NCBI GenBank assembly: GCA_963827655.1
Contig: CAWHCF010000010.1
Location: 128,001 to 192,000, forward strand
Source: an uncultured Acidobacteriota bacterium
GTDB lineage: Bacteria; Acidobacteriota; UBA6911
DNA: 64,000 nt
Direction of reading: 5' to 3'
The notes under the pieces were generated by a model. It ran no database searches, was not told where the DNA came from, and was given only the letters and a program-made list of their open reading frames with translations. Shown here piece by piece: positions 1,755 through 47,989 of this stretch. A program made the position numbers and the translations under genes. How positions within the stretch are numbered: position 1 is the stretch's first letter; each line of letters begins with the position of its first letter.

Positions 1755-3803
1755 ATGTTTCTCGGAGATTATCGTACGGCTTTGAGAGGAAACCGCAAAA
1801 ACGGCTCGGCACTTCGATTGCTTCTAGTTGCCGCCTGCCTGTTTGCCGCTCTGGCGGCGCCGGCCGCCGAGAAGCCCTGGACAGTCGATGCGCTGATGCG
1901 CATCAAGACAGTGGCCGATCCCCAGATCAGTCCGGATGGGGCCCGAATCGCCTACGTGGTGCGCTCGGCAAACTTTGAGCGGAACGCGTACGACTCGGAA
2001 ATCTGGATAGCGCCGGCCGACGGAGGCAGGCCACAGCGGATTACCCAGCCTCACACCTCCGACGACCTGCCACGCTGGTCGCGCGACGGTCGCCTCGCCT
2101 TCGTCTCGCGCCGTAACGGCGCGGCCCAGATCTACATCCTCCAAAAAAACGGGGGCGTACGCCAACTGACGAGTTCGCCGACGGCCGTGACCTCCTTCAA
2201 ATGGTCGCCAGACAGCAGCAGCATTGCGTACATGGCCGTCGATCCGATCCCGGCGGACGAGCAGGCGCTTCAGCGCCGCGGCAGCGATCCGGTGGTTGCG
2301 GACCGGGTCTACCGCTACACGCGCATCTATGTGACTCGCGTGACGGACCTGCCCGCTGGACCGGCGCGGCTGCTGACGCGCGCGGATCGGCACGTCCTCT
2401 CGTTCGATTGGTCCCCGGACGGCGCCAGGATCGTCTACGCCGGGCAGGCTACACCGAGGAATCGGGACGCCTTCAACGTGGACCTGCATGAGATCGAGGT
2501 GGCGACGGGCCGCGACAGCGCGCTCGTGGAGCAGCCGGGCCGCGACGGCAACCCGAGCTATTCGCCGGACGGGCGCCTGGTTGCCTTCCACTCTCAGGCC
2601 GGTACAAACAACTACTTCGAGGCTCGTCACATAGGCATCGCTCGCTCCGGAGGGAGCGCCGTCCGGTATGTAACCGAGAAGCTCGATATCGACGTCTTTC
2701 GCGGCGGCAACGAGTTTTCGTGGTCCGGCGATGGGCGCCAGCTCATTTTCGGCGGAGGCAAGGGTACGCACGATGAACTGGTCGCTCTGGATTTGGAGGC
2801 GCTCACGTTGACGCGCCTGGTCACGGCGGTGGCCGGACCGTCAAGCTTCAGCGCGAGTGGCGACGGGCAGCGCATCGCGTTTCTGCGCGCGAGTCCCACG
2901 GCCCCGCCGGAGGTTTGGCTTCTCGACCGGCGGCACGTAAAGCCCGAAGAGCGTCAGATCTCGCGCGTGAACCCGCAGATCTCAGAATACTCGAGTTTCC
3001 AAACCCGGACCCTGGGCTGGAAGTCGAAGGACGGCCTCCAGATCGAGGGAGTTCTCCGACTCCCGGTCGGATACGGATCCGGGGCGCGCGTACCATTGCT
3101 GGTCGAGCTTCACGGCGGTCCCACCGGTGTGGCGCTCGAGGATTACCCCGTTCCCCGGACCTATCCGACCCAGCTCTACCTCCAGGCCGGTTTCGCCGTG
3201 CTGGCTCCGAACTTCCGGGGCAGCTCGAACTATGGCGCGTCCCTGCGTCTTGCCAACATCAAGTCGCAGGGTTTCGGAGACATGGACGATGTAATGGCCG
3301 GGATCGATCACCTCGTCGCGCAGGGCATCGCCGATCCGGACCGCCTGGGTGTCATGGGCTGGAGCTATGGGGGATTCCTCAGCATCTGGATCGTGAGTCA
3401 CTCGCAGCGGTTCAAGGCAGCTTCGATTGGCGCCCCGACGACCGATTGGATCTCATGGTATGGCGAGAGCGACGGCGCGAAAGAAGTTCTTTGGACCTAC
3501 TTCGGGGGCAAGCCGTGGGACAACTGGCAGACCTACAACCGGCATTCACCCCGCTACTCGCTCATCGACGTGAAGACACCGTCACTGCTGCTCCATGGCG
3601 AGAAGGACATCGACAGCACACCGGAAATCTTCTACGCGCTGACGGACCTTCAGGTGCCGGTGGAGTTCGTCACCTATCCGCGCGAGGGGCACGGCATCGG
3701 GGAGCCTTGGCACCAGCGCGACCTGCTCGAGCGGAACCTGGGCTGGTTCCAGCGCTGGATGGGGGGGGCCGATCCCCTCTTTCGACGATCCTCAGGAAAA
3801 TGA
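1755..3803 (+). CDS. S9 family (dipeptidyl/acylaminoacyl) peptidase, secreted, with beta-propeller (PD40) repeats
   Basis: Signal peptide; repeated WSPDG motifs; LHGGP; nucleophile motif GWSYGG; LLLHGEKD; YPREGH. Confidence 0.93.
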   Translation: MFLGDYRTALRGNRKNGSALRLLLVAACLFAALAAPAAEKPWTVDALMRIKTVADPQISPDGARIAYVVRSANFERNAYDSEIWIAPADGGRPQRITQPHTSDDLPRWSRDGRLAFVSRRNGAAQIYILQKNGGVRQLTSSPTAVTSFKWSPDSSSIAYMAVDPIPADEQALQRRGSDPVVADRVYRYTRIYVTRVTDLPAGPARLLTRADRHVLSFDWSPDGARIVYAGQATPRNRDAFNVDLHEIEVATGRDSALVEQPGRDGNPSYSPDGRLVAFHSQAGTNNYFEARHIGIARSGGSAVRYVTEKLDIDVFRGGNEFSWSGDGRQLIFGGGKGTHDELVALDLEALTLTRLVTAVAGPSSFSASGDGQRIAFLRASPTAPPEVWLLDRRHVKPEERQISRVNPQISEYSSFQTRTLGWKSKDGLQIEGVLRLPVGYGSGARVPLLVELHGGPTGVALEDYPVPRTYPTQLYLQAGFAVLAPNFRGSSNYGASLRLANIKSQGFGDMDDVMAGIDHLVAQGIADPDRLGVMGWSYGGFLSIWIVSHSQRFKAASIGAPTTDWISWYGESDGAKEVLWTYFGGKPWDNWQTYNRHSPRYSLIDVKTPSLLLHGEKDIDSTPEIFYALTDLQVPVEFVTYPREGHGIGEPWHQRDLLERNLGWFQRWMGGADPLFRRSSGK

Positions 3804-3970
3804 GGCTGAAAGTTGACCGAATTCCGCCAGTCTCTCCAAGCTCCTGTTCCTGTTTCTTCGACGCTCTAACCACGAAGACGCCAAGACCTGAGAAATTGAA
3901 TCGAAGTTGACCCGCCCACGCCTGCTGAATTACAGTCGAGACTACTGATCCGTACAACGGAGGTAACTGA

Positions 3971-5237
3971 ATGCCTAGCCGAAGGGAATTCGCGCGCTTG
4001 TTTGCCGCCGGAGGTTCGGCGGCGCTTTTCTTGCACCCAGCCTTTGCCGACAAGACCAAACCGTTCGTCCCGTCGCCCGTCGTCAACGAGGGTTTCTGGA
4101 AAACGGTGCGGGAGCAGTTTCTCATGCCGCCGGGCATCGCGGTGCTGAACGCCGCGAACCTCTGCCCGTCGCCCGCGCCTGTGCTCGAAGCCATGTACAA
4201 GACCACGCGCGAGCTCGACCGCGAGCCTTCGTCGTCCTATCGAGCGGGCTTGCTCGACGTCAAGGAAGCCACGCGGCGCAAGCTGGCCGATTTCCTTCGG
4301 GCCAGTCCTGATGAGATCGTGATCACGCGCAACACCAGCGAATCGAACAACCTGGTCTCGAGCGGTCTCGACCTCAAGGCCGGCGACGAAGTCGTCGTGT
4401 TTTCCGACAACCACCCGAGCAACAAGACGGCCTGGCAGGAGAAAGGCAAGCGTTTCGGTTACTCCGTGCGAACCATCGACATCGTCAACCCGCATCCGGG
4501 CGCCGACTATTACCTCGAAGCTGCGGCACGGCAGCTCGGCCCGCGCACCAAGGTGCTCGCGTTCAGCCATCTCACCAATACCGTCGGAGACCTGTTTCCG
4601 GCGCGCGAGCTCTGCCGGCTGGCGCGCGAGCGCGAGGTCTTGACCCTCATCGATGGAGCCCAGTCGTTCGGGTTACTGGATGTCGACCTTAGTGATATTC
4701 AACCCGACTTTTATACCGGGAGCGCCCACAAGTGGCCCTGCGGACCCAAAGAGGCAGGTGTGCTCTACATCAACAAGCGATCGCACTCGGAAGATCTGGC
4801 CCAGCATTTACAGCGCGTTTCCGGGAGCCACCGGAATATCCAAGAGCTTCGAGTGTTTCGGGCAGCGTGATGACGGAGCTATGGCCGCTTTCGGCGCTGC
4901 GATTGACTTTCAGGTCAAAGTGGGCCGCAAGAACATCGAGGATCGGGCGCGGCAGATCGGCCAGGCGTTCGTGCAGGAGCTGGGAAAAATCAGCGACGTG
5001 AAGCTCTGGACCCACGCCGATCCCCAGCGCACGGGGCCGGTCGTGACGTTTCGACCGGGCGAGCTGAAATCCGAGAAGCTGGCCCAGGTCTTGTTCGAAA
5101 AGGAAGGTGTCATCTGCGCAGTCCGCGGAGGGAGCGATCGTCCCGGCATCCGCTTCTCCCCGCACTTCTACAACTCGCATCGGGAAGTCGAACGCGTAGC
5201 CGCCGCTATCCGCCGATACATGGCCTCCGGGTTGTAA
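3971..5237 (+). CDS. Class V aminotransferase / cysteine-desulfurase-like PLP enzyme with Tat signal (+1 indel near 4790)
   Basis: SRREF Tat motif; ITRNTSES; IDGAQSFG; GSAHKWPCGP (PLP lysine). C-terminus IRFSPHFYNS lies in the next frame (4653-5237). Confidence 0.88.
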
Positions 5238-6179: not shown

Positions 6180-6248
6180 TTAAACGCGATACTTGGCCAG
6201 CGTCTTGTCATTCAGGGTGATGCCGAAGCCCGGACGCTGGGAGAGAAG
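6180..6248 (-). pseudogene. 3' remnant resembling a mandelate racemase/enolase-superfamily C-terminus
   Basis: Reads LLSQRPGFGITLNDKTLAKYRV* with an in-frame stop just upstream. Confidence 0.4.
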
Positions 6249-6276
6249 ACGTCAGAGAAAGATCATCGGATTAAGC

Positions 6277-6310
6277 CTAGATCCTGAATCCTAGATCCTG
6301 AATCCTGATC
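6277..6310 (+). repeat. Heptamer tandem repeat (ATCCTAG/ATCCTGA)
   Basis: cctagatcctgaatcctagatcctgaatcctgatc seen directly. Confidence 0.75.
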
Positions 6311-6347
6311 TTGATTAAGCCCGATCCCGTCCGTTAAGATCATCGCT

Positions 6348-7027
6348 ATGCGGGCACTTTTGAAGCGCTTCTTGACGTGGTTGGGCGGGATCCTGCCGGA
6401 ATCCCTGGTCTGGAAACTGCACATGGCCGGCAAACATGTTCACACCGGCTGGTGGATGAAGGACCATGACTTCTCCTGTGACGTGAGAGTGCGTCATCGA
6501 GAACAGGTGATCGAGGCGATGGCGCGGCCCATCGCCGACAAGCAGGTTCTGTACCTCGAATTCGGCGTTTTCCACGGCGGCTCCATGCGCCAGTGGGTCA
6601 AGTGGCTTAAAAACCCAAAGTCAAAACTTCGCGGGTTCGACAGCTTCGAGGGGATCCCCGAAAACTGGAGCGGCTGTGATCAAAAAAAGGAGAACTGACC
6701 ACGGGTGGCGTCATGCCGAACATCCCGGACGAAAGGGTCCGGTTTATCAAGGGATGGATCGAGGACACGCTGCCAGTCTACAAGATGGAAGAAAACGAAG
6801 TCCTGGTCATTTTTATTGATACCGATCTGTACTCGTCGACCTACTTCGTCCTGAAGCACCTCAAGGATTACTTCAAAGTCGGCACCCTTTTCTACTTTGA
6901 CGAGTTTGCCGTAGTAGAGCACGAGCTGCAGGCGTTCGATAACTTCATCCGCGAGTCGGGCATGAAGTTCGAATTGATTGCGGCCGACTACGGCATGATG
7001 AACGTTGCCTTCAGACGCGTCGGTTGA
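6348..7027 (+). CDS. TylF/MycF-like (macrocin-type) O-methyltransferase, split at an A7 run (6682-6688)
   Basis: YLEFGVFHGGS, GFDSFEGIPE, FIKGWIEDTLP, IFIDTDLYSST, FDEF. One extra A gives CDQKKGELTTGGVMPNIP and joins the two ORFs. Confidence 0.85.
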
Positions 7028-7126
7028 TGCACTCTGAGCCTCGCGTTTGACTCAACTCGAAATCGAGCACTCCTCCCCGGGGATCCGCAGCTTAATCGCC
7101 AAGAGGCGACGACACCAGAGTTTAAG

Positions 7127-10100
7127 ATGAGATCCCGAACTTTCTTGATTCTTTTGCTTGGCATCCATGCTCCGCTCGGGGCGCAGGAGGCCGCGCGCGT
7201 GGAGCTCTTTTCCCCTCAGGGGACGGTCAAGCAGGTGCGCCAGGCGCGGGCGCGCTTTTCAGAGCCCATGGTCCCCTTCGCTGATCCAAGGGCCGCCGCC
7301 CAACCTTTTGTGATTGACTGCGCCGAGAAGGGAACCGGCCGTTGGGTCGACGCCAGAAACTGGGTCTACGACTTTGAAAGGGACCTCCCCGCCGGTGTCC
7401 GGTGCGAGTTCAGGATTCAGGACAGCCTGAGAACCGTTAGCGGCAGGACTCTGGGCGGGGAGCAAAGATTCGCGTTTTCAACGGGCGGACCGGCCATCAT
7501 CGCGTCGTTCCCGCCTGAAGGCTCAGAACGCATTGACGAAGCGCAGATCTTCGTCCTTGAACTCGACGGTGAAGCTACCGAAAGCTCTGTTCTCGCCAGT
7601 GTGCGGTTCGATGTGGAAGGACTGGCCGAGCGCATCGGAGCGCGGATAGTGTCGGGGACCGAGCGCGAGCAGATACTCAAGACCTCCCACTATCGTTACC
7701 GAAAACCGCTTCCCCCGCTCCTTTTAATCCAGGCCCGGCAGCGATTCCCCGCCGGATCTGCAGTCACGCTGATCTGGGGCAAAGGAGTGGCCGCGGCCAG
7801 CGGCGTCGCTACCGAATCGGACCTCACCCGAGCCTTTGTCACACGAACTCCATTCACTGCCAGTCTCAACTGCCCGCGGGAAAATCCCGACGCCGACTGC
7901 ATACCCATAACTCCGGCGCGCCTGACATTCTCCGCGCCGGTCGCGGCCTCCGAAGCCCGGAAGGCAGTGGTAAGGGGCCCGGGGAACCGCCGCTGGCTCG
8001 CCGAGATTGCCGAGTCTGAAAAGGATGATCCGTACGTTCACGCAGTCTTCTTCAAGGGCCCTTTTCCGGAGCGTGCCGCCTTTACGCTCGAGATTCCTGC
8101 GGGCCTCAAGGACGACTCCGGACGAAACCTGACCAATTCGGATAAGTTCCCGCTTTCGTTTCGCACCGATGCCTATCCTTCGCTGGCGAAGTTTGCGGCC
8201 GACTTTGGAATTGTGGAGGCAAAGCCGAGGGCGCTGCTTCCGGTCACGCTCAGGAATGTCGAGCCGTCAGTTTCCGCTCGAGCGTTTGAGGTCCTGGGCG
8301 GGGAAGAGAACACCGATCCACCCGCTCCCGCCCGGCCGGACGAAGACATGGCTGCAAAGTTGAGAGGCAGGATCTTCCGGGTTCCGCCCGACAGGGCCGG
8401 TCAGATGCTCGACTGGATCAAGAAGGTATCCGGCCGCGGCTGGGAGGATCGGGAAAAGTCGGTCTTCGGGCCCGTAACGGCCGCGAAAACCAAGCCGTTC
8501 ACCGTCCCGAAACTCCATGGCCCGAAAGCCTTCGAAGTCGTCGGCATTCCATTGCCGAAGCCCGGGTTTTACGTGGTCGAAATCGAGAGCGGGATCCTTG
8601 GAGCCGCCCTGCTCGGCGCCGCCAAGCCGATGTTCGTGCCCACCGCGGTTCTGGCCACGAACCTCTCGGTCCATTTCAAGTGGGGGCTCGAATCGTCGCT
8701 CGTCTGGGTAACGGCGCTCGACACCGGCAAACCGGTAAGCCAGGCCGCAATCGTGATCCGCGACTGTGGCGGAAAGCCGCTCTGGGAAGGACAATCCGAC
8801 CGGGACGGCATTGCCCGCGTCCAGACGGTTCCTCCGCGCGGCACCTCGCAGCAATGCGGCGATTATCCCCTGGAAGGCGGCCTGCTCGTCAGCGCGCAGC
8901 TCGGGGACGACATGGCTTTCGTCCACACCAGCTGGAACGACGGCATCGAACCGTGGCGTTTTCAGCTTCCGACTGAATACGAGACCAGCCTGGTCGCGGC
9001 ACACACAATCTTTGACCGAACCCTGCTACGTGCCGGCGAGACTGTGCACATGAAGCATATCCTGCGCCGGCATGTCAGTTCCGGCTTTTCAAGAGTGCCT
9101 GAAAATGAACGACCGGGCGCCGTCATCATGACCCATTGGGGGAGCGATCAGAAGTATGAATTCCCCCTTCGATGGGATCCGGCAGGGATCGCCGAGACCG
9201 CCTGGAAAATTCCGAACGAGGCCAGGCTGGGAAACTATCAGGTGACCCTTGCAACCAACGGGCGCGCGGGCCATCACTCCGGGGAATTCCGAGTCGAGGA
9301 GTATCGCGTGCCCCTGATGAAAGGGGCGATTCAGACGCCTTCGCGGATGCTGGTCGCGCCAGCTTCAGTGCCACTCGACCTTACGGTCAGTTACCTGGCA
9401 GGGGGAGCCGCCGGCAATCTTCCCGTGAGGCTGCGCCATGTCGTCCAACCGAGAGCTGCGACGGTCTTCCCGGCGTTTGACGACTTCCATTTCTCGAATG
9501 GAAAACTAAAGGAGGGCCTGATTCGTCACGGGGCGGAGGAGGGAGAGCCTCAAGAACGGAAGCCTTTTGAGCTGAACAGCACCGATCTCACTCTCGACAG
9601 GCAAGGCTCGGCACGGACGGTGATATCAGAACTGCCCGGGCTCGAGAAGCCGATGGAGATTCTGGCCGAACTCGAGTTCCGCGATCCCAATGGCGAGACC
9701 CAGACGGTTTCGTCCCGTATCCCGCTCTACCCCGCTGATCGTCTCGTCGGCATCAAGCCGGCTTCGTGGTTAACTTCCGAGCAGTCGGCGCTCCGGTTCC
9801 AGGTTGCGGTGGTCGATTTGAGCGGCAATCCGATCGCCGGGGCCCCTGTGCGGGTTGATTTATTCGAACGAAAGACATATTCCCATCGGAAACGCCTGGT
9901 CGGAGGATTCTACGCGTTCGAACACGCCACCGAGACGCGACGGGTCGGCGGCCTGTGTGAGGGAAAGACCGACCAGCGCGGGTTGCTCCTCTGTGACAAG
10001 CGGTCGCCCATTTCCGGAAACTTGATTCTCCAGGCCACCACAGCTGACAGCGCCGGCCGCGAAACCACCGCCAACCGCGATATCTGGGTTGCCGGCAAAG

Positions 10101-12769
10101 AAGATTGGTGGTTTGCCGCGCGCGACAGCGACCGCATCGATGTCATCCCGGAGATGAAAAGCTACGAGCCTGGAGACAAAGCGCGATTCCAGGTGCGGAT
10201 GCCCTTCAGGCGCGCCACAGCCCTCGTCACCGTGGAACGCGAGGGGATCGCGGATGTGTTCGTGCGCGAGCTTCAGGGAAGAGAGCCGATCGTCGAAGTC
10301 CCGGTGAAGGGAAATTTCGCCCCCAACGTCTTTGTTTCTGTCCTCGCGGTTCGAGGTCGGGTCGGAGGCGTGCAGCCGACGGCCACGGTTGACCTGGGGC
10401 GTCCGGCCTACAAACTGGGGATCGCGGAGATCCGGGTCGGCTGGAAAGCTCACGAGCTTAAAGTGAAGGTCTCGACCGATCGTCCGGTCTACAGAGTGCG
10501 GGAAAAGGCCAGGGTGGATATCGCGGTCACGACGCCCGAAGGGACCGCTCCGCCGGCAGGGACGGAGGTTGCCCTTGCTGCCGTCGATGAAGGCCTGCTG
10601 GAGCTGCAGCCCAACGCCAGCTGGCAGCTCATCGACGCCATGATGCGCCGGCGCGGCTGCGGCGTCGAAACTTCAACGGCCCAGATGCACGTCATCGGAA
10701 AGCGGCACTTCGGGCTGAAGGCACTCCCGCAGGGGGGCGGGGGAGGCAAGCAGGCGACGCGCGAGCTTTTCGATACGCTGCTTTTATGGAGAGGGCGTGT
10801 CCCGCTCGACGGGCAAGGACGGGCCTCCGTTGAGGTCCCGTTGAACGACTCTTTGACCGGTTTTCGCATCGTCGCCGTAGCCACGGGAGGCACGGATCGC
10901 TTCGGCACCGGATCGACTTCGATCCGCTCCACGCAGGAGCTCATGATCTTGTCGGGAATCGCGCCCGTAGTTCGCCAGGGTGACCAGTTCCGCGCCACGT
11001 TCACCGTGCGCAACGCCACCGAGCGTCCGCGAGACGCGACGGTTTCCACGCGGGTCAAGGGAATTGCCGAGCCGCTCCAGCCCACGACCGTCGCACTTGC
11101 GCCCGGAGAGGCGCGAGAGATCGCCTGGACGGTAACCGCTCCCGCTACGGTCGATTCGCTCACCTACGAAGTTGAGGCCAAAGGCGCGGAGGGCGTCACG
11201 GATCGCCTGAGCGTCTCCCAGAGAGTCGTTCCTGCCGTTCCGGTTCGCCCCTTTCAGTCCGTCCTGATTCCAGTCGAGGGGGAAGTGCTGATGGACCTGG
11301 AGCGCCCCAACGACGCGCTTCCCGGGCGAGGCGGCATCCTGGTATCGCTGCAGCCTACTCTGCTTGATGGCCTCAAGGGCGTAACCGACTACATGCGCAG
11401 CTATCCCTATACCTGCCTGGAGCAGGAAATCTCGCGCGCCGTTGCGCTGCGGGATCGGGAACGGTGGAACAGGCTCATGGCTCAGCTCCCTGCGTACCTC
11501 GACTCGAATGGTCTTGCAAAATACTTCCCGTCGAACCCCAGGGGCAGCGACGTTTTGACTTCATATATCCTCGCCATTGCCGGCGAGGCCGGTTGGCAGA
11601 TGCCGGATCAACCCAGGAACGCGATGACGCGAGGGCTGCAGGGCTTCGTCGAGGGTCGAGTCATTCTTCACTCCCCGGTTTCGGCGGCCGACCTGGCGCT
11701 TCGCAAACTCTCGGCGCTGAATGCGCTCTCTCGCTGGGAGAAAGTCGAACCTGCCTTGCTCTCGGCGATCACCGTCGAGCCGAACCTCTGGCCTACCTCG
11801 GCTGTGATCGACTGGTTCGACATCATCCAGAGGGTTTCAGGAATCCGTAACGGGAGCGACCGGCTCCGGGAAGCCGACCAGATCCTCAGATCGAGGCTCA
11901 GCTTTCAGGGGACCACGATGGGTTTTTCCACGGAACGAAGCGATTTCCTCTGGTGGCTCATGGTCTCAAACGACACCAATGCGGTGCGATTGCTGCTCTC
12001 GGTGGCCGGCGCCGACTCCTGGCGCGAAGACCTTCCCAGGTTGGCCAGGGGATCTCTGGCGCGCCAGCGGCGAGGATCCTGGGATACGACGGTGGCAAAC
12101 GCGTGGGGCGTTCTGGCGCTGGAGAAGTTTTCCAAGGCTCTGGAAAAAACTTCAGTCACAGGCTCGACCTCCGTAACACTGAACACGACCCAGACGATCG
12201 ACTGGAATGAAACGCCCGCAGGGAAAGCGGTCTCATTCCCTTGGCCCGCCCAGCGAAGCCCGCTTTCGATCCGGACTTCCGGCGCCGGAAGGCCGTGGGC
12301 CACAGTGCAGAGCCTCGCGGCCATTCCGCTCAAGCAGCCTCTGACGAGCGGGTTCAAGCTCCGCAAGACCCTGACGGCAGTCGAGCAAAGACGACCAGGC
12401 GTCTGGAGTCGAGGGGACGTCCTAAGAGTAAGGATCGAGCTCGAAGCTTCGTCCGACATGACCTGGGTGGTGGTGAGCGATCCGATTCCGGGCGGTGGCG
12501 CGATCCTCGGGACCGGACTCGGACGGGACTCGCAGCTGCTAACGCGCGGCGAGGAGCGCAAGGGGTGGGTGTGGCCGGTTTTCGAAGAGCGCTCTGCCGA
12601 AGCCTTCCGCGCCTACTACGAGTACGTTCCAAAAGGGGAGTGGACCGTGGAGTACACCCTTCGATTGAACAACGAGGGGCTGTTTTCGATTCCCGCCACT
12701 CGGGTCGAGGCGATGTACGCTCCGGAAATGTTCGGAGAGACCCCGAACGAGGCCATGCGCATCCAATGA
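7127..12769 (+). CDS. Bacterial alpha-2-macroglobulin family protein (YfhM-like)
   Basis: 1880 aa with signal peptide; FRVEEYR, LAAVDEG, thioester motif YPYTCLEQ, C-terminal RVEAMYAPE; ATGA overlap with pbpC. Confidence 0.95.
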   Translation: MRSRTFLILLLGIHAPLGAQEAARVELFSPQGTVKQVRQARARFSEPMVPFADPRAAAQPFVIDCAEKGTGRWVDARNWVYDFERDLPAGVRCEFRIQDSLRTVSGRTLGGEQRFAFSTGGPAIIASFPPEGSERIDEAQIFVLELDGEATESSVLASVRFDVEGLAERIGARIVSGTEREQILKTSHYRYRKPLPPLLLIQARQRFPAGSAVTLIWGKGVAAASGVATESDLTRAFVTRTPFTASLNCPRENPDADCIPITPARLTFSAPVAASEARKAVVRGPGNRRWLAEIAESEKDDPYVHAVFFKGPFPERAAFTLEIPAGLKDDSGRNLTNSDKFPLSFRTDAYPSLAKFAADFGIVEAKPRALLPVTLRNVEPSVSARAFEVLGGEENTDPPAPARPDEDMAAKLRGRIFRVPPDRAGQMLDWIKKVSGRGWEDREKSVFGPVTAAKTKPFTVPKLHGPKAFEVVGIPLPKPGFYVVEIESGILGAALLGAAKPMFVPTAVLATNLSVHFKWGLESSLVWVTALDTGKPVSQAAIVIRDCGGKPLWEGQSDRDGIARVQTVPPRGTSQQCGDYPLEGGLLVSAQLGDDMAFVHTSWNDGIEPWRFQLPTEYETSLVAAHTIFDRTLLRAGETVHMKHILRRHVSSGFSRVPENERPGAVIMTHWGSDQKYEFPLRWDPAGIAETAWKIPNEARLGNYQVTLATNGRAGHHSGEFRVEEYRVPLMKGAIQTPSRMLVAPASVPLDLTVSYLAGGAAGNLPVRLRHVVQPRAATVFPAFDDFHFSNGKLKEGLIRHGAEEGEPQERKPFELNSTDLTLDRQGSARTVISELPGLEKPMEILAELEFRDPNGETQTVSSRIPLYPADRLVGIKPASWLTSEQSALRFQVAVVDLSGNPIAGAPVRVDLFERKTYSHRKRLVGGFYAFEHATETRRVGGLCEGKTDQRGLLLCDKRSPISGNLILQATTADSAGRETTANRDIWVAGKEDWWFAARDSDRIDVIPEMKSYEPGDKARFQVRMPFRRATALVTVEREGIADVFVRELQGREPIVEVPVKGNFAPNVFVSVLAVRGRVGGVQPTATVDLGRPAYKLGIAEIRVGWKAHELKVKVSTDRPVYRVREKARVDIAVTTPEGTAPPAGTEVALAAVDEGLLELQPNASWQLIDAMMRRRGCGVETSTAQMHVIGKRHFGLKALPQGGGGGKQATRELFDTLLLWRGRVPLDGQGRASVEVPLNDSLTGFRIVAVATGGTDRFGTGSTSIRSTQELMILSGIAPVVRQGDQFRATFTVRNATERPRDATVSTRVKGIAEPLQPTTVALAPGEAREIAWTVTAPATVDSLTYEVEAKGAEGVTDRLSVSQRVVPAVPVRPFQSVLIPVEGEVLMDLERPNDALPGRGGILVSLQPTLLDGLKGVTDYMRSYPYTCLEQEISRAVALRDRERWNRLMAQLPAYLDSNGLAKYFPSNPRGSDVLTSYILAIAGEAGWQMPDQPRNAMTRGLQGFVEGRVILHSPVSAADLALRKLSALNALSRWEKVEPALLSAITVEPNLWPTSAVIDWFDIIQRVSGIRNGSDRLREADQILRSRLSFQGTTMGFSTERSDFLWWLMVSNDTNAVRLLLSVAGADSWREDLPRLARGSLARQRRGSWDTTVANAWGVLALEKFSKALEKTSVTGSTSVTLNTTQTIDWNETPAGKAVSFPWPAQRSPLSIRTSGAGRPWATVQSLAAIPLKQPLTSGFKLRKTLTAVEQRRPGVWSRGDVLRVRIELEASSDMTWVVVSDPIPGGGAILGTGLGRDSQLLTRGEERKGWVWPVFEERSAEAFRAYYEYVPKGEWTVEYTLRLNNEGLFSIPATRVEAMYAPEMFGETPNEAMRIQ

Positions 12770-35425: not shown

Positions 35426-36745
35426 CTAGCTGAATGAATTAATTATCTTGTTAACGGCAGAGTGGATCTCGGGGTCTTTCTTCTTCAGGTATTCGATTCT
35501 GCGGATTGAATGAAGCACGGTCGTGTGGTGCTTTCCGCCGAAGTCCTTGCCGATCTGGGGCAGAGACAACGCGGTGACCTGCTTGCACACATACATCGCA
35601 ATCTGGCGAGGCTGCGCAATACGGCGGGAGTTGTTCCTGGATTTCAGCACAGCCGGTTTGAGGCCGAAATGGTTGGATACCGAGCGGATGACCATTTCGG
35701 ACGAGATCGCGCGTTTTTCGTCGATGACGATCCCTCGGAGGACTTCGCGCGCATAGTCGATGTCGATATCGGTCGAGTCGATTCCGTCAAGGGAAGCCCG
35801 AGCGATGAGACGCTTGAGCGCACCCTCCAGTTCACGGATGTTCGAGCGGATGCTGCTCGCAATATAGACAGCTACGCCATCCGGGAGAGAAAGCAATTCC
35901 AGGTCAGCCTTCTTTTTCAGAATGGCGATTTTGGTTTCCAGATCGGGAGGCTGAATGTCAGCAATCAGTCCCCATTCGAATCGTGAGTGCAGCCGCTCCT
36001 CGAGAGTTGGAATCTCTTTGGGAGGGCAATCGCTCGTGATTACGATCTGCTTCTGCGCGTCATAAAGAGCATTGAAGGTGTGGAAGAACTCTTCCTGGGT
36101 TCTTTCCTTGCCGGCAATGAACTGAATGTCATCCATGAGCAGCACGTCGATGTTGCGGTATTTCTGACGGAACTGGTTGGTCCGGTCGTATCGAATGGAA
36201 TTAACCAGCTCGTTCATGAAGCTCTCTGACGACATGTAGCTCAGGCGCAGGGCACCATTCTTCTGCCAGATGGAGTGACCTATGGCGTGCATCAGGTGAG
36301 TCTTCCCCAGACCCACTCCGCCATAAACGTATAATGGGTTATAAGCCTTCGAGGGTTGGTCTGCCACTGCGAGAGCCGCGGCCCGCGCGAATTGATTGCT
36401 GGAGCCGACTACGAACGAATTAAACGTGTACTTAGGGTTCAACCCGCGGGGCGGAATCGTCGGCCGCTGCGGGTTCGACAGGGGTTCGCGGGATTCTCCA
36501 CCGCCCGATGCTGGTTCGACCGAGACTTTGACCTGCAGCGTTCCATGTCCTGCCTCACGAACGGCGTCGCGCAAGACATTGGAGTAGTTCTCGAGGAACA
36601 GTTTCTTGAAATTTTCGTTTGGAACCGTGAGGTGAACGGCGCTCTCATCACAACCGTCAAAGACAACAGGGCGAAACCAGGTGTCAAAGCATTGCTGGTT
36701 GACGCGCTTTCCAACCTTTGACAAAACCTGAGCCCACACATCCAT
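35426..36745 (-). CDS. dnaA: Chromosomal replication initiator DnaA
   Basis: LNPKYTF, YGGVGLGKTHL, DDIQF, QEEFFHTFN, NIRELEG, PRQIAMY, GGKHHTTV; start MDVWAQVL at 36745. Confidence 0.98.
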   Translation of the reverse strand: MDVWAQVLSKVGKRVNQQCFDTWFRPVVFDGCDESAVHLTVPNENFKKLFLENYSNVLRDAVREAGHGTLQVKVSVEPASGGGESREPLSNPQRPTIPPRGLNPKYTFNSFVVGSSNQFARAAALAVADQPSKAYNPLYVYGGVGLGKTHLMHAIGHSIWQKNGALRLSYMSSESFMNELVNSIRYDRTNQFRQKYRNIDVLLMDDIQFIAGKERTQEEFFHTFNALYDAQKQIVITSDCPPKEIPTLEERLHSRFEWGLIADIQPPDLETKIAILKKKADLELLSLPDGVAVYIASSIRSNIRELEGALKRLIARASLDGIDSTDIDIDYAREVLRGIVIDEKRAISSEMVIRSVSNHFGLKPAVLKSRNNSRRIAQPRQIAMYVCKQVTALSLPQIGKDFGGKHHTTVLHSIRRIEYLKKKDPEIHSAVNKIINSFS

Positions 36746-36821
36746 TATCGGCCCCATGCTCAGGAACAAGTGGTTGAGGGGAAGAAAGATAGAACGACAG
36801 GTTGCGAGCGACTTGCTTGAG

Positions 36822-36998
36822 TTTTCCACAGTTATTTTCACAGCTGTGGAAAACACCAATCCGCTGAACAGCGGCATACCGCTGCTCCCTCGATCGTCTC
36901 AAGATCGGCGGATATCGTTTTGCGGACCGTCGTAAGGCGCGAAGCATTCAACTCAACAACGCGCGTGAAAGTAACACAGGGTTTTTACACATTTCAAG
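36822..36998. promoter_or_regulatory. DnaA boxes and dnaA promoter region (upstream part of the origin)
   Basis: TTTTCCACA (36822), TTTTCACA, TGTGGAAAA (36845), TTTTACACA (~36983) inside a TTGAAA..TGTTACTTT promoter-like element on the minus strand. Confidence 0.75.
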
Positions 36999-41694: not shown

Positions 41695-44600
41695 TCAATA
41701 AAGGGGCCCTGGGTCACCCTGGCAAATGAACGCTCCCCAGTAGAGCGGATCCGGATCCTCGTCCTTGAGCGCGAGTTGCGCATCGCGCAACGCATCGGCT
41801 CGCGGCTGGCCCGCCAGCATGCGGCGATAAAAGTCAGTCATGAGCTTTTGAGTCTGCTGGTCCGGTACTTTCCAGAGACTCATCACGAGGGTCTTGGCTC
41901 CCGCCAGCACGAAGGCTCTGCGCAATCCGAAGACGCCCTCGCCCGTCTTGATCTCGCCCAGCCCGGTCTCGCACGCCGACAGGGTGACGAGCTCGGTCGC
42001 CTGCAAATCCATTCCCGAAACATCCTCGGCGTTCAGGAGCGCGTCTTCGGCTTCGCCCGGCAGATCGCCGCGCTCGATCCATGTGTTTGCGCCGGCCAGC
42101 GCCAGGCCGGATCGCAGCAACGGACTCTCGATGCCCAGCGCGGCGAGACGATTGAATGCAAGACCGAATCCGGCCGCTCCGAGATCGCGCGCGCCTTGCG
42201 GGCGGCCGCCCGGCTGGTCAGACAGGAAGAATCCGTGGGTCGCGAGGTGGAGAATGCGCGGCGAACGACAGGATTTGACCCTGGACTCGAGCGCAATCGA
42301 ATCGAGCAGCGGCTTCACGCGCAGCATTTCGGCGATCCGTTCGCCTTCGATTCTGGTTCCCGGCAGACGTTTGAAATGGAGGTTCCCCCGATCGAGGTCG
42401 CGCGAAAGTCTCATGGGGGAGTCCTCGAGCGATCTGGTCGCGGCGCTCGCCGGCGCCGTCAAATCAAAATCGGGATCGGCGATGACCATGGGGTCGCCGG
42501 CCTGCCCCTTGACCGAGTTTCCGAATCGCATCACGTCGCGGCCCGTACTGAGATAACTGATGTGGTAATCGTCAATCAGCCGGCGTCCATCGCCAAGCTC
42601 CAGAACCTCGAACGGAAGGCGCGAGAGTTCGCCTTCGGGCGCGAGCAAAAGCTGCCGGCAATCGCCCAGCACCGGCAGAAGCGGGTCGAAGACGGCACGG
42701 CGCAGCGCGACGCCGCAATCCGATGTCGATTCGACCGGCGCTCGAGGCGGTGCCGCCCCAAGGTCTCTGCCGCTCCCGCCTCCGATCTCGCCGGTGAGCT
42801 GGGCGCGAAAACAGCCGACCAGGCGATCGATCTCATCGGCGTCGCCGAGGTTGATCATCCGCAGATCGTGCGGTCGTGAGGCAGGCAGCACAAAGGCGGC
42901 ATAGCGCGCCTTCACGAACAGCTCGTCCGCCAGGGCCTGCGGATTGTCGAAATCAAAATCGAAGAAATGGACGAACTCGATCAGGGCCGAGCCGGCCGGG
43001 AGAGCCGCGGCCACCTTCGTCAGATCGACCTCGCGCATCTTCTGTCCCAGCCCGACCTCGGGAATCTGGAGCGCCAGTTGCCGTTCCAAAGCTTCTCGGC
43101 GCGCCTTCAGCTCGCGCAGCGCCCGAAGGTGAACCTCGAGGCCGTCGCTCCCCGGACCTGAGAGCGTCATCTGCGAGATGCTTTGCCGCACCGAGGCCAG
43201 CTCGCGCAAGTGAGGTTCGAGGTGGGGATACTTTCCGCTGAGCACCGAATCGCGCTGGGCGGCCAGAGCCTCCGCGCCAATCCCTTTGCGCTTGAGCACG
43301 AGGTTCATCGCCGCCTGGACCGCCGGGGGGCTGCCGATCAGATGCTGCGAAACCAGGGAAATCGAGCAGAGGAACCTCGACTGGATGTGCCGGACATAAC
43401 CCATCCGCTGGCTTTCGGAGGCGAGCGAGAAGAATTCGTGAATGGATTGGTCCGTGATGGATTCAATCTGTACCATCAGCTCCCGGGCTTCTTCATAGCG
43501 CTTGGTCGCGGCGCACACAAGCAGCAGATTGCTGAGCACGGCGGCCCGCAGCGGATGCTCTTCTCCCACCAGCGCGCGATACGCCTCCGCCGCCTGGCGC
43601 AGTGCCATCTCGGCGATTTCGTAGTTGCCCAGCCGCAACAACAGCAGACCGAAACCGTTGAGGATGCTGGTGTGTTCGGGAACCGGACTCTCTTGCGCCA
43701 GGCCGATGGCCTGCTCGAAGAGCGCAAGAGCGTCATCGTACTTTTCGCGATGCGTGTATATGGTCGCCAGGTTGCCCAGGGCGGTGATGTAGTACGGTCC
43801 CCGTTCGCCCTCAACATCACGGAAGGCCGCCACGGCTCGTTTGGCGTAATGCTCGGCTTGCTCAAGCTCGAGGGTATCTATGTAGAGCTTCGCCAGGGCG
43901 TTCAAGGTTGTGGCTTTGTGCATGACCATGACGCCGGTCGCATCTTCCAGTATCTGGAGCGCCCCGAGGAAAGCCGTTTCGGCCGGCCGGTAGTCTCCAA
44001 CGTTGTGATAGAGATCTCCCAGATAGAAAAGATCCACTGCGTAGAGCCAGTGGTTTTCTCCCAGCTTCGAGCCGTGAATCCTCATCGCCTGCTGCGCGAG
44101 CGGGATCCCGGTCTTGTATTGGCCCAGGTTCCGGTAATGAATGGCCAGATTGTTAAGGCTGATCGCGAAGTCCTCGTGGTCTTCGCCGAGCACTTTGCGT
44201 CGAATCTCGATGGATTCGAACAGGCATTGTTCAGCAGACTTGAAAGCCCCGGTCCGCCCGTAGACAGTTGCCATGAGGTTGAGCGTCTGGGCATATTCCG
44301 CAGTCTCGACGCCCGCCGTTTCGCGCTGGAATTCCAGCACTCGCCTTAGAAGTTGCTCGGCTTCGTCGTACCTCCCAAGCGCCAGGGAGCTCGTGGCCAG
44401 AAGACTCAGGGTGTTGAAGTAAATGGGATGGTTCTCCCCCAGGACACGGCTTGCAAGCTCGCGCAATCGCTCCGCTCGCGGCCGGGCGTCAGCCATTTTG
44501 CCGACGTTCATCTGGAACCCGACAACGACATTCAGCAGCTCCACGTATTCGGCAGTCTCTTCCCCCCCGGCTCGCTGCTTGATCTCGAGTGTCCGTTCGA

Positions 44601-45211
44601 GCCATGGCAGCGCTTCGTGGTGTCTGCCCGCTTCCGCGTAATACCAGGCCAGCGTTTCGACCAGCTGGCCGTAAACCGGATGGTCTTCTCCGAGGTGTTT
44701 GCGGTTCGGTTCTACAGCCTGCAGAAGGAGGGGCTCCGCCTCTTCGTGGCGGCCCTGCTGCGAATAGATCAACCCGAGGGTAGCCAGATTATCGGCGTAT
44801 TGCGGGCTATCCTCGCCCAGCGCAGACGGAATCAACTCGCGCAGGGCTTCATACCACGGCAGGGCCGATTCCATTCTTCCCGTCTTCAGGTAGAGCATGG
44901 CCAGATTGGTCATGGCGGCAACGGACGAAGGATGCTGCTTGCCCGTGGTGTCGGTGTAGCAAGCGATCGCGCCCAGGTATAACTTCTCGGCATCCTCGTG
45001 GCTTCCCTGCGCCGCGTAAAGAAAGGCGAGGTTGTTCATGCTATCGCCGGTTGAAGAACCCTCCATCCCGAGGTTTTGAGAGGCCAAGGCGAATGCGAGC
45101 CTGGCGCGGGTCAGCGCTTCCTCGGTTTGCCCTTGCTGGATGAGTTCGATAACGGCTCTTGTTGAGAGTGTCAATGGTGTCGGGCGTGATCTCTGAATCC
45201 TCTTCCGGCAT
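41695..45211 (-). CDS. TPR-CHAT (caspase/separase-like) protease; probable true start 45211 with a +1 indel near 45157
   Basis: More than 10 kinesin-light-chain-type TPRs (LGEDHP...SLNNLA); CHAT motifs LPFEVL, LPGTRIE, ILHLATHGFF (His), LSACETG (Cys), AGAKTLVMSLWKV, YWGAF. AAAGGA RBS precedes ATG-PEEDSEITPDTIDTLNK. Confidence 0.93.
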
Positions 45212-45272
45212 TTTAAGGGGTCCTTTCTGGAAATGATCCCATCGCGTGATTGGTCGGAAGCGCGCCAGGCCG

Positions 45273-46277
45273 TCACATCACATCGAAGTAAGTGGACAGT
45301 GCCATCCACTGATTGGCCTCCATTCCGTGAAGCCGCGCGAGTAATTCGTCAATGTCCGTTCGAGAAAGAACCCGGGCAGGAACCCGCGGATTCAGCGGCA
45401 TCCAGTCGAGCCCCAGCGGATGATCGGTGAGGACGGCCAGGAGATGCTCGCGTCCCGGCTTGCCCGTCACCACAAACGATTGGTAAGTGGATCCCGGCCG
45501 AGGCAAATAGCTGCGGCCGGCCTTGAATCGGGTGTCGGGCGCAAACCACGACGGACAGAGACAATAGATCTGGCCGCTCGTGCCCTCGTTCAGAAGCAGG
45601 AGGTCGCCTTCGCGTTCTGATTCAATGGCCAGACAGACGCGGTCGCCCGGGCGGAAGCCATGTTGCGCTTCCTCCTGCGGAGCGCCCAGGTCGCGCAGTA
45701 TGGGACGCGCGGCGCCGCGGCTTGCCGCCCCTGCGGGAACCGGCCAGATGCGGTCGGTGAATCTCGCAATCGATCTCAGGCCTTCGATCCCGTGCGCCAG
45801 GGGTTGCGGTTGAGCAACCGGCTTTGTGCCGGCGAGGTCAACCCTGGTTCGGCAATCGACGCCGGCGAGCTCGAGCGATTGCAGGACCTGAGGCAGCCAC
45901 TGCTCGGCGGCGCGATCGATGACTTCGATCCATTGCCAGCCTTCCAGCCAGTACTCGATCTGTTCGGGAAGGTTGATCGGGTCCAGCAGAATCGGCAGGT
46001 ACGGACGCTCGTACTTCCAGGCAAGCTGAATCTCCTGTTTGACGTTGCGTGAGCGCATCGAAGCGTCAGTCGTCATGAGCATCAGCACCTTGCAGTTCTT
46101 GATACCGCGAACGATTTCGGGGCCGTAGTTGAGACCTCCGGCAATCTTGTTGCGATCAAGCCAAAGCTTCACGCCGGCCTCTTCCAGCTGACCGGCGATT
46201 CTGATCACCCGTTCGCGGTCGCGGCTGGAGTAGCTTATGAAGACTTCGGCGTCATCGACTGAGACGGGTTGCTTCAT
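45273..46277 (-). CDS. TIR domain protein fused to a C-terminal DUF4384-like domain
   Basis: TIR: VFISYSSRD, LWLDR, SRNVKQE (catalytic Glu position), LPILLD. C-terminal FRPGDRVCLAIESEREGDLLLLNEGTSGQIYCLCPS...GKPGREHLLAV fits the DUF4384 pattern. Confidence 0.85.
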   Translation of the reverse strand: MKQPVSVDDAEVFISYSSRDRERVIRIAGQLEEAGVKLWLDRNKIAGGLNYGPEIVRGIKNCKVLMLMTTDASMRSRNVKQEIQLAWKYERPYLPILLDPINLPEQIEYWLEGWQWIEVIDRAAEQWLPQVLQSLELAGVDCRTRVDLAGTKPVAQPQPLAHGIEGLRSIARFTDRIWPVPAGAASRGAARPILRDLGAPQEEAQHGFRPGDRVCLAIESEREGDLLLLNEGTSGQIYCLCPSWFAPDTRFKAGRSYLPRPGSTYQSFVVTGKPGREHLLAVLTDHPLGLDWMPLNPRVPARVLSRTDIDELLARLHGMEANQWMALSTYFDVM

Positions 46278-46321
46278 GGCTCAACGGGAATCAATAGAAC
46301 CGAATCGTAAAAGCAATCAAA

Positions 46322-46414
46322 GTGTCTTGGTGTTTCTTCGTGACTTGGTGTCTTTGTGGTTAGAGCTGTCAAACAAATACCACGAAGACTCAAAGACACG
46401 AAGAAACACCAGGA
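46322..46414. repeat. Largest inverted copy of the ~9-bp-unit intergenic repeat
   Basis: cttggtgtttcttcgtgacttggtgtctttgtggt pairs with accacgaagactcaaagacacgaagaaacaccagg. Confidence 0.85.
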
Positions 46415-46427
46415 ATCGTGCGCCAGC

Positions 46428-47934: not shown

Positions 47935-47989
47935 TTTCTTTGGTGGTTTGCGTCCTTGCGGTAAAGTGTGCCGCCAAGCTGCGAAGGCG

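Follow-up and report, generated by a model that had tools for sequence, protein, structure and literature searches.

A conserved TIR-DUF4384 and TPR-CHAT gene pair in an Acidobacteriota genome, apparently an undescribed variant of protease-and-substrate systems

The described systems closest to the locus presented here are built around CHAT or other caspase-like proteases. In Craspase (type III-E CRISPR-Cas; Csx29/Csx30, Csx31, RpoE), the substrate of the TPR-CHAT protease Csx29 is Csx30, and one group of Csx30 C-terminal domains is reported to correspond to DUF4384 (bioRxiv 10.1101/2022.08.17.504292). Csx30 is also described as holding the extracytoplasmic function (ECF) sigma factor RpoE. 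Craspase orthologues reportedly cut Csx30 at non-conserved sites (between L and D, M and K, or A and S), single substitutions nearby being tolerated (PMC11106740). Type IV Thoeris is described as a short TIR protein alongside a caspase-like protease with N7-cADPR as the signal; the protease is reported to be arginine-specific, and its C-terminal domain is thought to bind this signal (bioRxiv 10.1101/2024.10.24.620036). DdvA is described as a TPR-CHAT anti-sigma factor (PMC11506125). Here we report a two-gene locus, encoding a TIR-DUF4384 protein and a TPR-CHAT protease, in a stretch of 64,000 nucleotides (hereafter the window) from an uncultured Acidobacteriota bacterium of the UBA6911 lineage (assembly GCA_963827655.1, contig CAWHCF010000010.1, positions 128,001 to 192,000). 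The main new result is a short motif common to a loop of the TIR-DUF4384 partner and to the protease, which carries two copies of it.

The pair shares parts with each of the known systems and fits the definition of none. As in Craspase, a cytoplasmic TPR-CHAT protease lies beside a two-part protein with a flexible linker, DUF4384 recurs in the C-terminus of one Csx30 group, and an ECF sigma gene is found in variants of the present family. Unlike in Craspase, the head is a TIR, a kinase or a PNP domain (PNP_UDP_1, phosphorylase superfamily) instead of the N-terminal domain of Csx30, the TPR array is far longer, and a conserved motif is common to protease and partner, whereas the Craspase sites are non-conserved (PMC11106740). 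No cas gene was found among the ten neighbouring open reading frames (ORFs) scanned (35.4-52.8 kb of the window), a scan for CRISPR arrays not having been made. With type IV Thoeris the pair has in common a two-gene operon that encodes a TIR and a protease of the caspase fold, and the arginine specificity described there would be compatible with cutting beside the invariant Arg of the motif found here. Yet the TIR is here fused to DUF4384, the protease is a TPR-CHAT protein without a C-terminal sensor domain, and the proposed order of events is reversed. PADLOC 2.0.0 gave no match to type IV Thoeris, this release (2023) predating the type IV Thoeris preprint (2024). As for Thoeris I/II, the pair has weak ThsB matches only (E 1.7e-5 to 9.5e-3) and no ThsA-type match, and no SIR2/SLOG or Macro/TM ThsA-type domain was found among the scanned neighbours. 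DdvA likewise ties a TPR-CHAT protein to ECF sigma control of defence genes, with a proposed self-cleavage in its linker loop (PMC11506125), but it is membrane-bound and periplasmic, whereas the present proteins have no hydrophobic segment and the window pair has no sigma factor. In the SAVED-CHAT/PCaspase system (type III-B CRISPR-Cas), too, a CHAT protease is described as processing an adjacently encoded protein and unleashing an effector, but it is activated by cyclic oligoadenylate via SAVED; no SAVED or Cas10 is present here, and the putative sensor is the TPR array.

A first-pass annotation of this DNA, made from the sequence alone, had not recognised the two-gene architecture as a described system, and this agrees with our searches. 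No system model of PADLOC 2.0.0 covers the pair: the protease matched a generic TPR model and, weakly, PDC-M71B only, and the TIR protein only the TIR parts of unrelated models. The literature full texts searched contained no description of this TIR-DUF4384 and TPR-CHAT pair. Neither 'CHAT' nor 'DUF4384' occurs in the main text of a systematic TIR survey (bioRxiv 10.64898/2025.12.03.692087), whose supplementary tables may bear on novelty, as may the Csx30 C-terminal groups in Figs S13-S14 of bioRxiv 10.1101/2022.08.17.504292, since the negative covers main texts; a 2021 eLife paper on Death and TRADD-N domains in bacteria has no relevant CHAT passage. The pair is a real, conserved and apparently undescribed variant of the protease-plus-substrate kind of system.

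The R-[D/G]-L-G-A motif in both proteins

Between the TIR head and the DUF4384 tail of the partner, conservation in an alignment of 44 sequences is strong in two stretches, at about residues 165-181 and at R195-x-L-G-A-P-Q201. Within the second, R195, L197 and G198 are invariant and A199 is present in at least 90% of the sequences. This motif sits within a coil some 22 residues long just before the beta-sandwich of the tail, modelled with a predicted local distance difference test (pLDDT) of 73-75 versus 88-96 for the domain. Sequence conservation inside a disordered loop typically points to a linear recognition motif.

The same five residues occur twice in the protease, just before the CHAT domain (site 1) and in the loop between the catalytic His and Cys (site 2; Table 1). 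To compare them we used 36 distinct loci with this DUF4384 subfamily, obtained from two scans of one-genome-per-species contigs and designated by L numbers. A like motif is carried by the DUF4384-bearing ORF in 32 of the 36 loci and by the cognate CHAT ORF in 16 of 25 (L030 and L034 left out). In the partner proteases its usual place is 17-26 residues ahead of the CHAT envelope or past the catalytic His. Site-1-like motifs precede the envelope in L006, L007, L011, L017, L018, L024, L025, L031, L032, L033, L035 and L040, all within that spacing except in L025 (48 residues) and L032 (42 residues), in an alignment that is gap-rich and variable in length around the site. Equivalents of site 2 are present in L006, L007, L011, L017, L019, L020 and L035, and L027 has a similarly placed motif.

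The motif recurs in the partner proteases and not in other CHAT proteins compared. The 30 partner CHAT ORFs (23,466 residues) contain 24 R[DG][LM]G motifs versus 2.4 expected, and 80 other CHAT ORFs from the family at large (87,718 residues) contain 9 versus 9.0 expected. In the host genome we counted R[DG]LGA over all six-frame ORFs of at least 100 amino acids (32,029 ORFs, 6,606,859 residues): among the 45 occurrences, the CHAT ORF of the window is the sole ORF with two copies, and the adjacent gene carries a third. The five other CHAT places of this genome (seven overlapping six-frame ORFs read) contain no R[DG][LM]G. The strict motif is also present in 53 of the 76 best cluster representatives from a search of a large protein library with the tail.

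Linkage to CHAT and exchange of the head domain

A search with the TIR-DUF4384 protein yielded 334 proteins at E <= 0.001 among 7772 candidates; both TIR_2 and DUF4384 were found in 119 of the 120 matches listed (of 334), which are 51-96% identical and bear names from several phyla. The 36 loci come from Acidobacteriota, Planctomycetota, Gemmatimonadota, Thermodesulfobacteriota, Nitrospiraceae, Methylococcales and Cyanobacteria. In 27 of them a CHAT gene lies on the same strand within 10 kb, 25 being recovered by jackhmmer seeded with the CHAT domain of the window and two more (L030, L034) being missed by jackhmmer and seen by Pfam. Among the other loci, a TPR ORF is cut by the contig end in four (L005, L008, L023, L026), the contig ends within 656 bases in three (L010, L039, L042), and two (L016, L044) have room on both sides and no CHAT. 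The CHAT ORF is less than 100 bases away in 12 of the 28 loci that hold both TIR and DUF4384, and the unit has its gene order swapped in L017 and L019. Since the host genome has just six CHAT matches in 8.18 Mb, chance proximity is estimated at below about 1%. The conserved adjacency that the first-pass annotation had proposed looking for is thus found, and the pair is supported as a unit conserved across phyla. In L044 the match is confined to the DUF4384 part. In L016, a complete chromosome of a Gemmataceae member, the TIR-DUF4384 gene comes after an Hsp70-family gene and the gene for a 561-residue protein without Pfam match (locus 6186-10978).

In the reverse search, seeded with the C-terminal 600 residues of the protease, this DUF4384 subfamily was present in only 4 of the 80 loci found (27-51% identity). 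Set against 27 of 36, this suggests that the tail needs CHAT, whereas CHAT proteases in general occur in many contexts besides this one. The pair is accessory, with a patchy distribution: no full-length homologue was found in any of 40 relatives searched, nor in plasmid and phage collections, where matches cover the TIR part or the DUF4384 part only. A profile of the tail retrieved 1273, 282 and 76 clusters at E <= 1e-3, 1e-10 and 1e-30, respectively, from a library of 1.84 billion proteins, and in most of the 150 best listed clusters the match ends a few residues from the C-terminus of the protein.

The head in front of this tail is variable. Ten cluster representatives sampled by length have TIR (four), Pkinase (three) or PNP_UDP_1 (one) heads, or heads without Pfam match (two); the PNP_UDP_1 head belongs to P0159, a cluster representative of 442 residues with the same DUF4384 tail and RGLGA just before it. 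A Pkinase-TIR-DUF4384 architecture is found in L009, L010, L014 and L034, and in L009, L010 and L034 an ECF sigma gene (PF07638; E 3e-44, 7.5e-51 and 2.5e-41) directly precedes it. By jackhmmer, an ECF gene and a kinase head are present in L010, L018, L028, L034, L036, L038, L039 and L042, the kinase is joined to DUF4384 without TIR in L038, L039, L040 and L042, and DUF4384 stands alone beside CHAT in L041, L043 and L045. The constant elements are the DUF4384 tail, the motif and the CHAT neighbour. As the tail is constant and the link to CHAT is retained while heads are swapped, we argue that the head is the output and the tail the coupling device. The ECF-sigma/kinase variants, which are absent from the first-pass annotation, open a regulatory reading that is weighed below.

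Several loci carry further genes. In Pyrinomonadaceae and Acidobacteria loci, a protein of 1250-1270 residues lies between the TIR-DUF4384 and CHAT genes (L012 9633-13436, L013 9628-13449, L014 9286-13044); it has no Pfam match in L012 and only a weak TPR_19 match in L014, and may be a third component. An ORF of 163-165 residues also intervenes in L012 and L013, that of L012 without Pfam match. The ECF/kinase-TIR-DUF4384 locus L009 has a second TIR_2 protein upstream (3019-4518, 499 residues) and a PD40 (WD40-like) repeat protein (9309-10550), which separates the tagged protein from a 1531-residue TPR-CHAT-TPR protein. On plasmids of Nostoc sp. UHCC 0870 (L052) and Anabaena cylindrica PCC 7122 (L053), a pair of DUF4384 and CHAT/TPR (about 1250 residues) proteins is encoded directly beside cas2, cas1 and a 2-kb gene annotated as cas1, which hints at an immune setting for this motif-less sister form; like pairs are found in Fischerella (L057), Nostoc punctiforme (L108) and Coleofasciculus (L099). 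In the host genome itself, contig C22 has three more DUF4384 domains at about 147.0-154.9 kb, in ORFs of 252-268 residues, and no CHAT match; contig C7 has three TIR-like matches within 3 kb (75290-78133; E 2.6e-11 to 2.2e-19). Besides the window gene, this genome shows ten TIR-region matches plus one DUF4384-region match.

The two genes and their surroundings

Both genes were found on the minus strand, adjacent and co-oriented as the first-pass annotation had placed them, with the S1-domain gene rpsA downstream and an FGGY sugar kinase gene upstream; its TIR, DUF4384, CHAT and TPR assignments are all recovered by Pfam, the first three above the cut-offs, and the codons of the catalytic residues that it had picked encode the expected amino acids (Table 1).

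Table 1. Positions in the window of the two genes, their domains, putative catalytic residues and copies of the shared motif
Feature	Position	Strand	Basis
TIR-DUF4384 gene (334 amino acids)	45273..46277	-	ORF, translation, Pfam
TIR domain, residues 12-121	45915..46244	-	Pfam TIR_2 E 4.9e-21
Glu82, putative catalytic glutamate of TIR	46032..46034	-	Codon verified
R195-D-L-G-A199, interdomain loop, proposed CHAT recognition/cleavage site	45681..45695	-	Codons verified
DUF4384 domain, Pfam 208-287	45417..45656	-	Pfam; conserved module ~residues 160-334
TPR-CHAT protease ORF, 1204 codons as listed	41695..45309	-	ORF, Pfam
TPR array, ~residues 51-640 of listed ORF, putative sensor/scaffold	43390..45159	-	Pfam TPR_12, TPR_10, TPR_MalT
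RDLGA site 1, residues 848-852, 13 residues before Pfam CHAT start	42754..42768	-	Codons verified
CHAT caspase-like protease domain, residues 865-1199	41713..42717	-	Pfam CHAT
Catalytic His1025	42235..42237	-	Codon verified, conservation
RDLGA site 2, residues 1041-1045, variable loop between His1025 and Cys1113	42175..42189	-	Codons verified
Catalytic Cys1113	41971..41973	-	Codon verified, conservation

The TIR_2 match of the partner reaches 75.9 bits (cut-off 28), and that to DUF4384 (PF14326) 43.6 bits (E 3.2e-11, cut-off 27). An AlphaFold2 model of the whole protein, built on the 44-sequence alignment, has a pLDDT of 84.8 and a predicted template modelling score (pTM) of 0.79. The best fold match of the TIR is 4w8h_A (Z 16.0, root-mean-square deviation (rmsd) 2.6, 123 residues aligned), and the nearest solved sequences to the head in a profile search of PDB sequences are Cat1 (3e-9), AbTIR (1.5e-6), TIR-1 (3.9e-6) and SARM1. 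All 44 aligned homologues have Glu82, which corresponds in the alignment to the glutamate of VHKE in Caenorhabditis elegans TIR-1 and which we take to be the catalytic one. Fold searches with the whole model returned almost only TIR matches, and the tail (residues 160-334) was accordingly modelled separately, as a beta-sandwich (pLDDT 90.4, pTM 0.87). The DUF4384 part has no match among PDB sequences in a family-profile search, and its fold matches are middling, the best being macroglobulin MG domains (Z 7.2, rmsd 2.0, 84 residues); we do not claim kinship with these, a Z of about 7 being too weak and possibly reflecting only a common arrangement, and the connection to proteins that act as protease baits is noted just as a curiosity.

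The protease combines a long helical-repeat region (TPR_12 E 8.8e-84, TPR_10 E 3.2e-70, TPR_MalT at 51-363) with CHAT (E 2.6e-69, 234 bits, cut-off 24) and ends five residues past the latter; its Pfam domains are only CHAT and helical-repeat families of the TPR class. His1025 and Cys1113 are invariant in 14 of 14 aligned close partners and retained in nearly all intact partner ORFs. The TPR array is the least conserved part, with 30-34% identity (tblastn) versus 59-64% for CHAT among close partners, and its length differs between partner proteases. A simple hydropathy scan found no hydrophobic segment in either the TIR-DUF4384 protein or the protease, so that both look cytoplasmic.

The listed start of the protease ORF, GTG 45309, overlaps the TIR gene and is probably not the real one. 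ATG 45211 is likelier: it follows a Shine-Dalgarno-like AAAGGA, although in another frame, and yields an N-terminus resembling those of the homologues. One base, 45154, is missing in an independent metagenome contig (run X2, depth 4), and its removal joins the frame of ATG 45211 exactly to the main frame, giving a protease of about 1171 residues. Similar one-base insertions split rpsA (40192; base missing in runs X1, X2 and X4) and the FGGY kinase gene (47191; missing in X1 and X2), and a further extra base stands at 47963 relative to independent contigs (missing in X2, X4 and X20). Because independent contigs lack the extra bases and rpsA is a single ORF of 576-612 residues in five of five relatives searched, we regard the breaks as assembly errors and not as signs of pseudogenes; most likely the genes are intact and the protease has about 1171 residues.

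Further neighbours in the window are dnaA, an S49 peptidase gene and sugar-metabolism genes. With dnaA (35426-36877) 5 kb from the pair, the locus seems to lie near the presumed replication origin. The stretch is present in soil and rhizosphere sequencing runs, and DnaA has 72% identity to its counterpart in an Acidobacteriota metagenome-assembled genome; the host is probably a soil bacterium of this phylum. A promoter scan found one promoter versus 1.3 expected, none above the shuffled expectation, and a terminator scan only weak terminator-like sites. Four contigs of 151 nt from a soil metatranscriptome (run X20, depth 2-2.4) fall on both genes; we did not count them as transcription, such libraries being able to contain DNA. 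An imperfect hairpin of 85 nt between the FGGY kinase and TIR genes (46320-46415, z -4.1) was first considered as an operator or terminator and then dropped from the system: it is a palindromic repeat with about 490 blastn matches genome-wide and very high depth in soil runs, and is a repetitive extragenic palindromic (REP)-like element. In five relatives, the FGGY kinase has matches of about 30% identity elsewhere in three and none in two, and with matches so poor synteny is unusable for testing an insertion of the pair.

Possible mode of action and meaning of the pair

We consider it plausible, if somewhat short of probable, that the protease cuts the tagged partner, in the way Csx29 cuts Csx30, and itself, in both cases at the motif or close to it, and that the TIR so released acts on NAD+. 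The locus would then be a cytoplasmic two-gene protease-and-substrate module, in which the TPR-CHAT protease would stay inactive as long as no trigger is met by its variable TPR array or by a partner that this array binds. Once activated, it would cut at or near R-[D/G]-L-G-A sites: in itself, at the junction before CHAT (as in prodomain removal) and in the His-Cys loop; in its substrate, in the disordered but conserved loop that joins the TIR head to the beta-sandwich of DUF4384. Together with its conserved extension on the N-terminal side, DUF4384 would act as a constant 'tag' coupling the head to the protease, and the freed TIR (residues 1 to ~194) may self-associate and consume NAD+ or make a nucleotide signal, upon which growth would stop. 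The biological role would most likely be abortive-infection-type immunity. That CHAT acts on the TIR-DUF4384 protein and not the reverse had been suggested in the first-pass annotation, and this direction is favoured by the motif shared between partner and protease and by the CHAT link, which follows the tail and not the TIR, being kept where a kinase or PNP replaces the TIR. A complex prediction pairing the C-terminal 600 residues of the protease with partner residues 160-334 (ipSAE 0.00 in each of two runs) carries no weight either way.

A number of observations weigh against this reading. The motif could equally be a peptide that docks on the TPR array, of the 24 motifs in partner proteases about 3 fall inside TPR repeats, and the cyanobacterial DUF4384 and TPR-CHAT pairs have no motif in either protein. 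Position 2 of the motif counts in favour of the reading by mostly agreeing between partners (D/D in the window and seven loci, G/G in seven loci), but it is mismatched in 2 of 17 pairs, and the agreement is inflated by shared descent. As Craspase orthologues cut Csx30 at non-conserved, substitution-tolerant sites, conservation of a motif does not by itself make it the scissile site. L016, which among the genome contigs has the closest full-length homologue (68% identity), lacks CHAT within 10 kb on either side. The window pair is surrounded by housekeeping and sugar-metabolism genes, and the tie to defence islands raised in the first-pass annotation is not borne out there. Finally, the ECF-sigma/kinase variants hint at a regulatory function in some of the family at least.

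These points lead to other explanations. The RDLGA loops might be docking or pseudosubstrate peptides, bound uncut by the CHAT active site or by a groove of the TPR array, with other proteins of the cell as the targets of cleavage. In that case the TIR-DUF4384 protein would regulate the protease or serve as its adaptor, like securin for separase, or be recruited by it into a TIR-oligomerising assembly. The motif data are as compatible with binding as with cutting, short peptides are common ligands of TPR arrays, and the copy in the His-Cys loop could be an auto-inhibitory pseudosubstrate. Precedents are described in DdvA, whose active site faces a linker loop, and in separase, which is under inhibitor control (PMC11506125). 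We nevertheless think this unlikely: site 1 keeps its place before CHAT even where no Pfam TPR is present (L025, L032), which recalls a processing junction, and TIR, PNP and kinase heads are typical effector or output domains that fit release better than inhibition. To a similar degree, we doubt that the module is regulatory and not immune, a protease-controlled switch whose fuller form would govern an ECF sigma factor via a Ser/Thr kinase, with the TIR version as a stress or developmental output. Such a role would explain the ECF sigma gene directly before the Pkinase-TIR-DUF4384 gene in three loci and the ECF genes and kinase heads in more, it has described precedents for TPR-CHAT control of an ECF sigma factor in Csx30-RpoE and DdvA-DdvS, and it would suit a pair sitting among housekeeping genes. 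Yet both precedents themselves belong to anti-phage defence, TIR and PNP heads are typical NAD- or nucleotide-depleting effectors, the distribution is patchy (50-68% identity across phyla, absence from all 40 relatives), and two cyanobacterial plasmids carry a DUF4384 and TPR-CHAT pair beside cas1/cas2.

It is very unlikely that events run in the Thoeris order, with the TIR sensing infection and an NAD-derived signal activating CHAT to cut cell proteins. A TIR next to a caspase-like protease is the layout described for type IV Thoeris (bioRxiv 10.1101/2024.10.24.620036), and Glu82 is conserved, but the CHAT link persists in loci without any TIR (L038-L043, L045), and the TIR therefore cannot be an obligatory signal maker. 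Moreover, the protease, ending so soon after CHAT, has no C-terminal domain of the type IV kind, and the shared motif would be left unexplained. That the two genes are chance neighbours with no functional tie can practically be set aside: nothing besides the lack of CHAT in L016 and L044 speaks for it, and against it stand the same-strand linkage in three quarters of the loci across several phyla, a gene order that is kept or swapped as a unit, and the motif common to both proteins.

Protease-licensed immune effectors are a recent theme in bacteria, with Craspase, the SAVED-CHAT cascade and type IV Thoeris as examples. If protease-driven release of the TIR holds true, the present family would extend this theme to a CRISPR-free form with a TPR sensor, in which a TIR is the substrate and not the source of the signal. 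DUF4384 would gain a concrete, testable role as a coupling tag for caspase-like proteases, with a candidate recognition motif now named, once in the substrate and twice in the protease. A broader proposal, which we find possible but rather doubtful, is that DUF4384 and its R-[D/G]-L-G-A linker form a general 'cut-here' tag for CHAT/caspase-like proteases: in a CRISPR-independent, Craspase-like pathway, a TPR-sensor protease would license interchangeable outputs (TIR NADase, PNP nucleosidase-type enzyme, ECF-sigma-controlling Ser/Thr kinase) by one sequence-defined cut, processing itself at the same motif. If so, a function would be given to a widespread domain, and a bacterial caspase-like protease would have a defined five-residue site; such a sequence-specific protease could become a useful tool. 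The swapping of heads (TIR, PNP, kinase with ECF sigma) would tie abortive-infection-type effectors and sigma-factor control to one protease switch.

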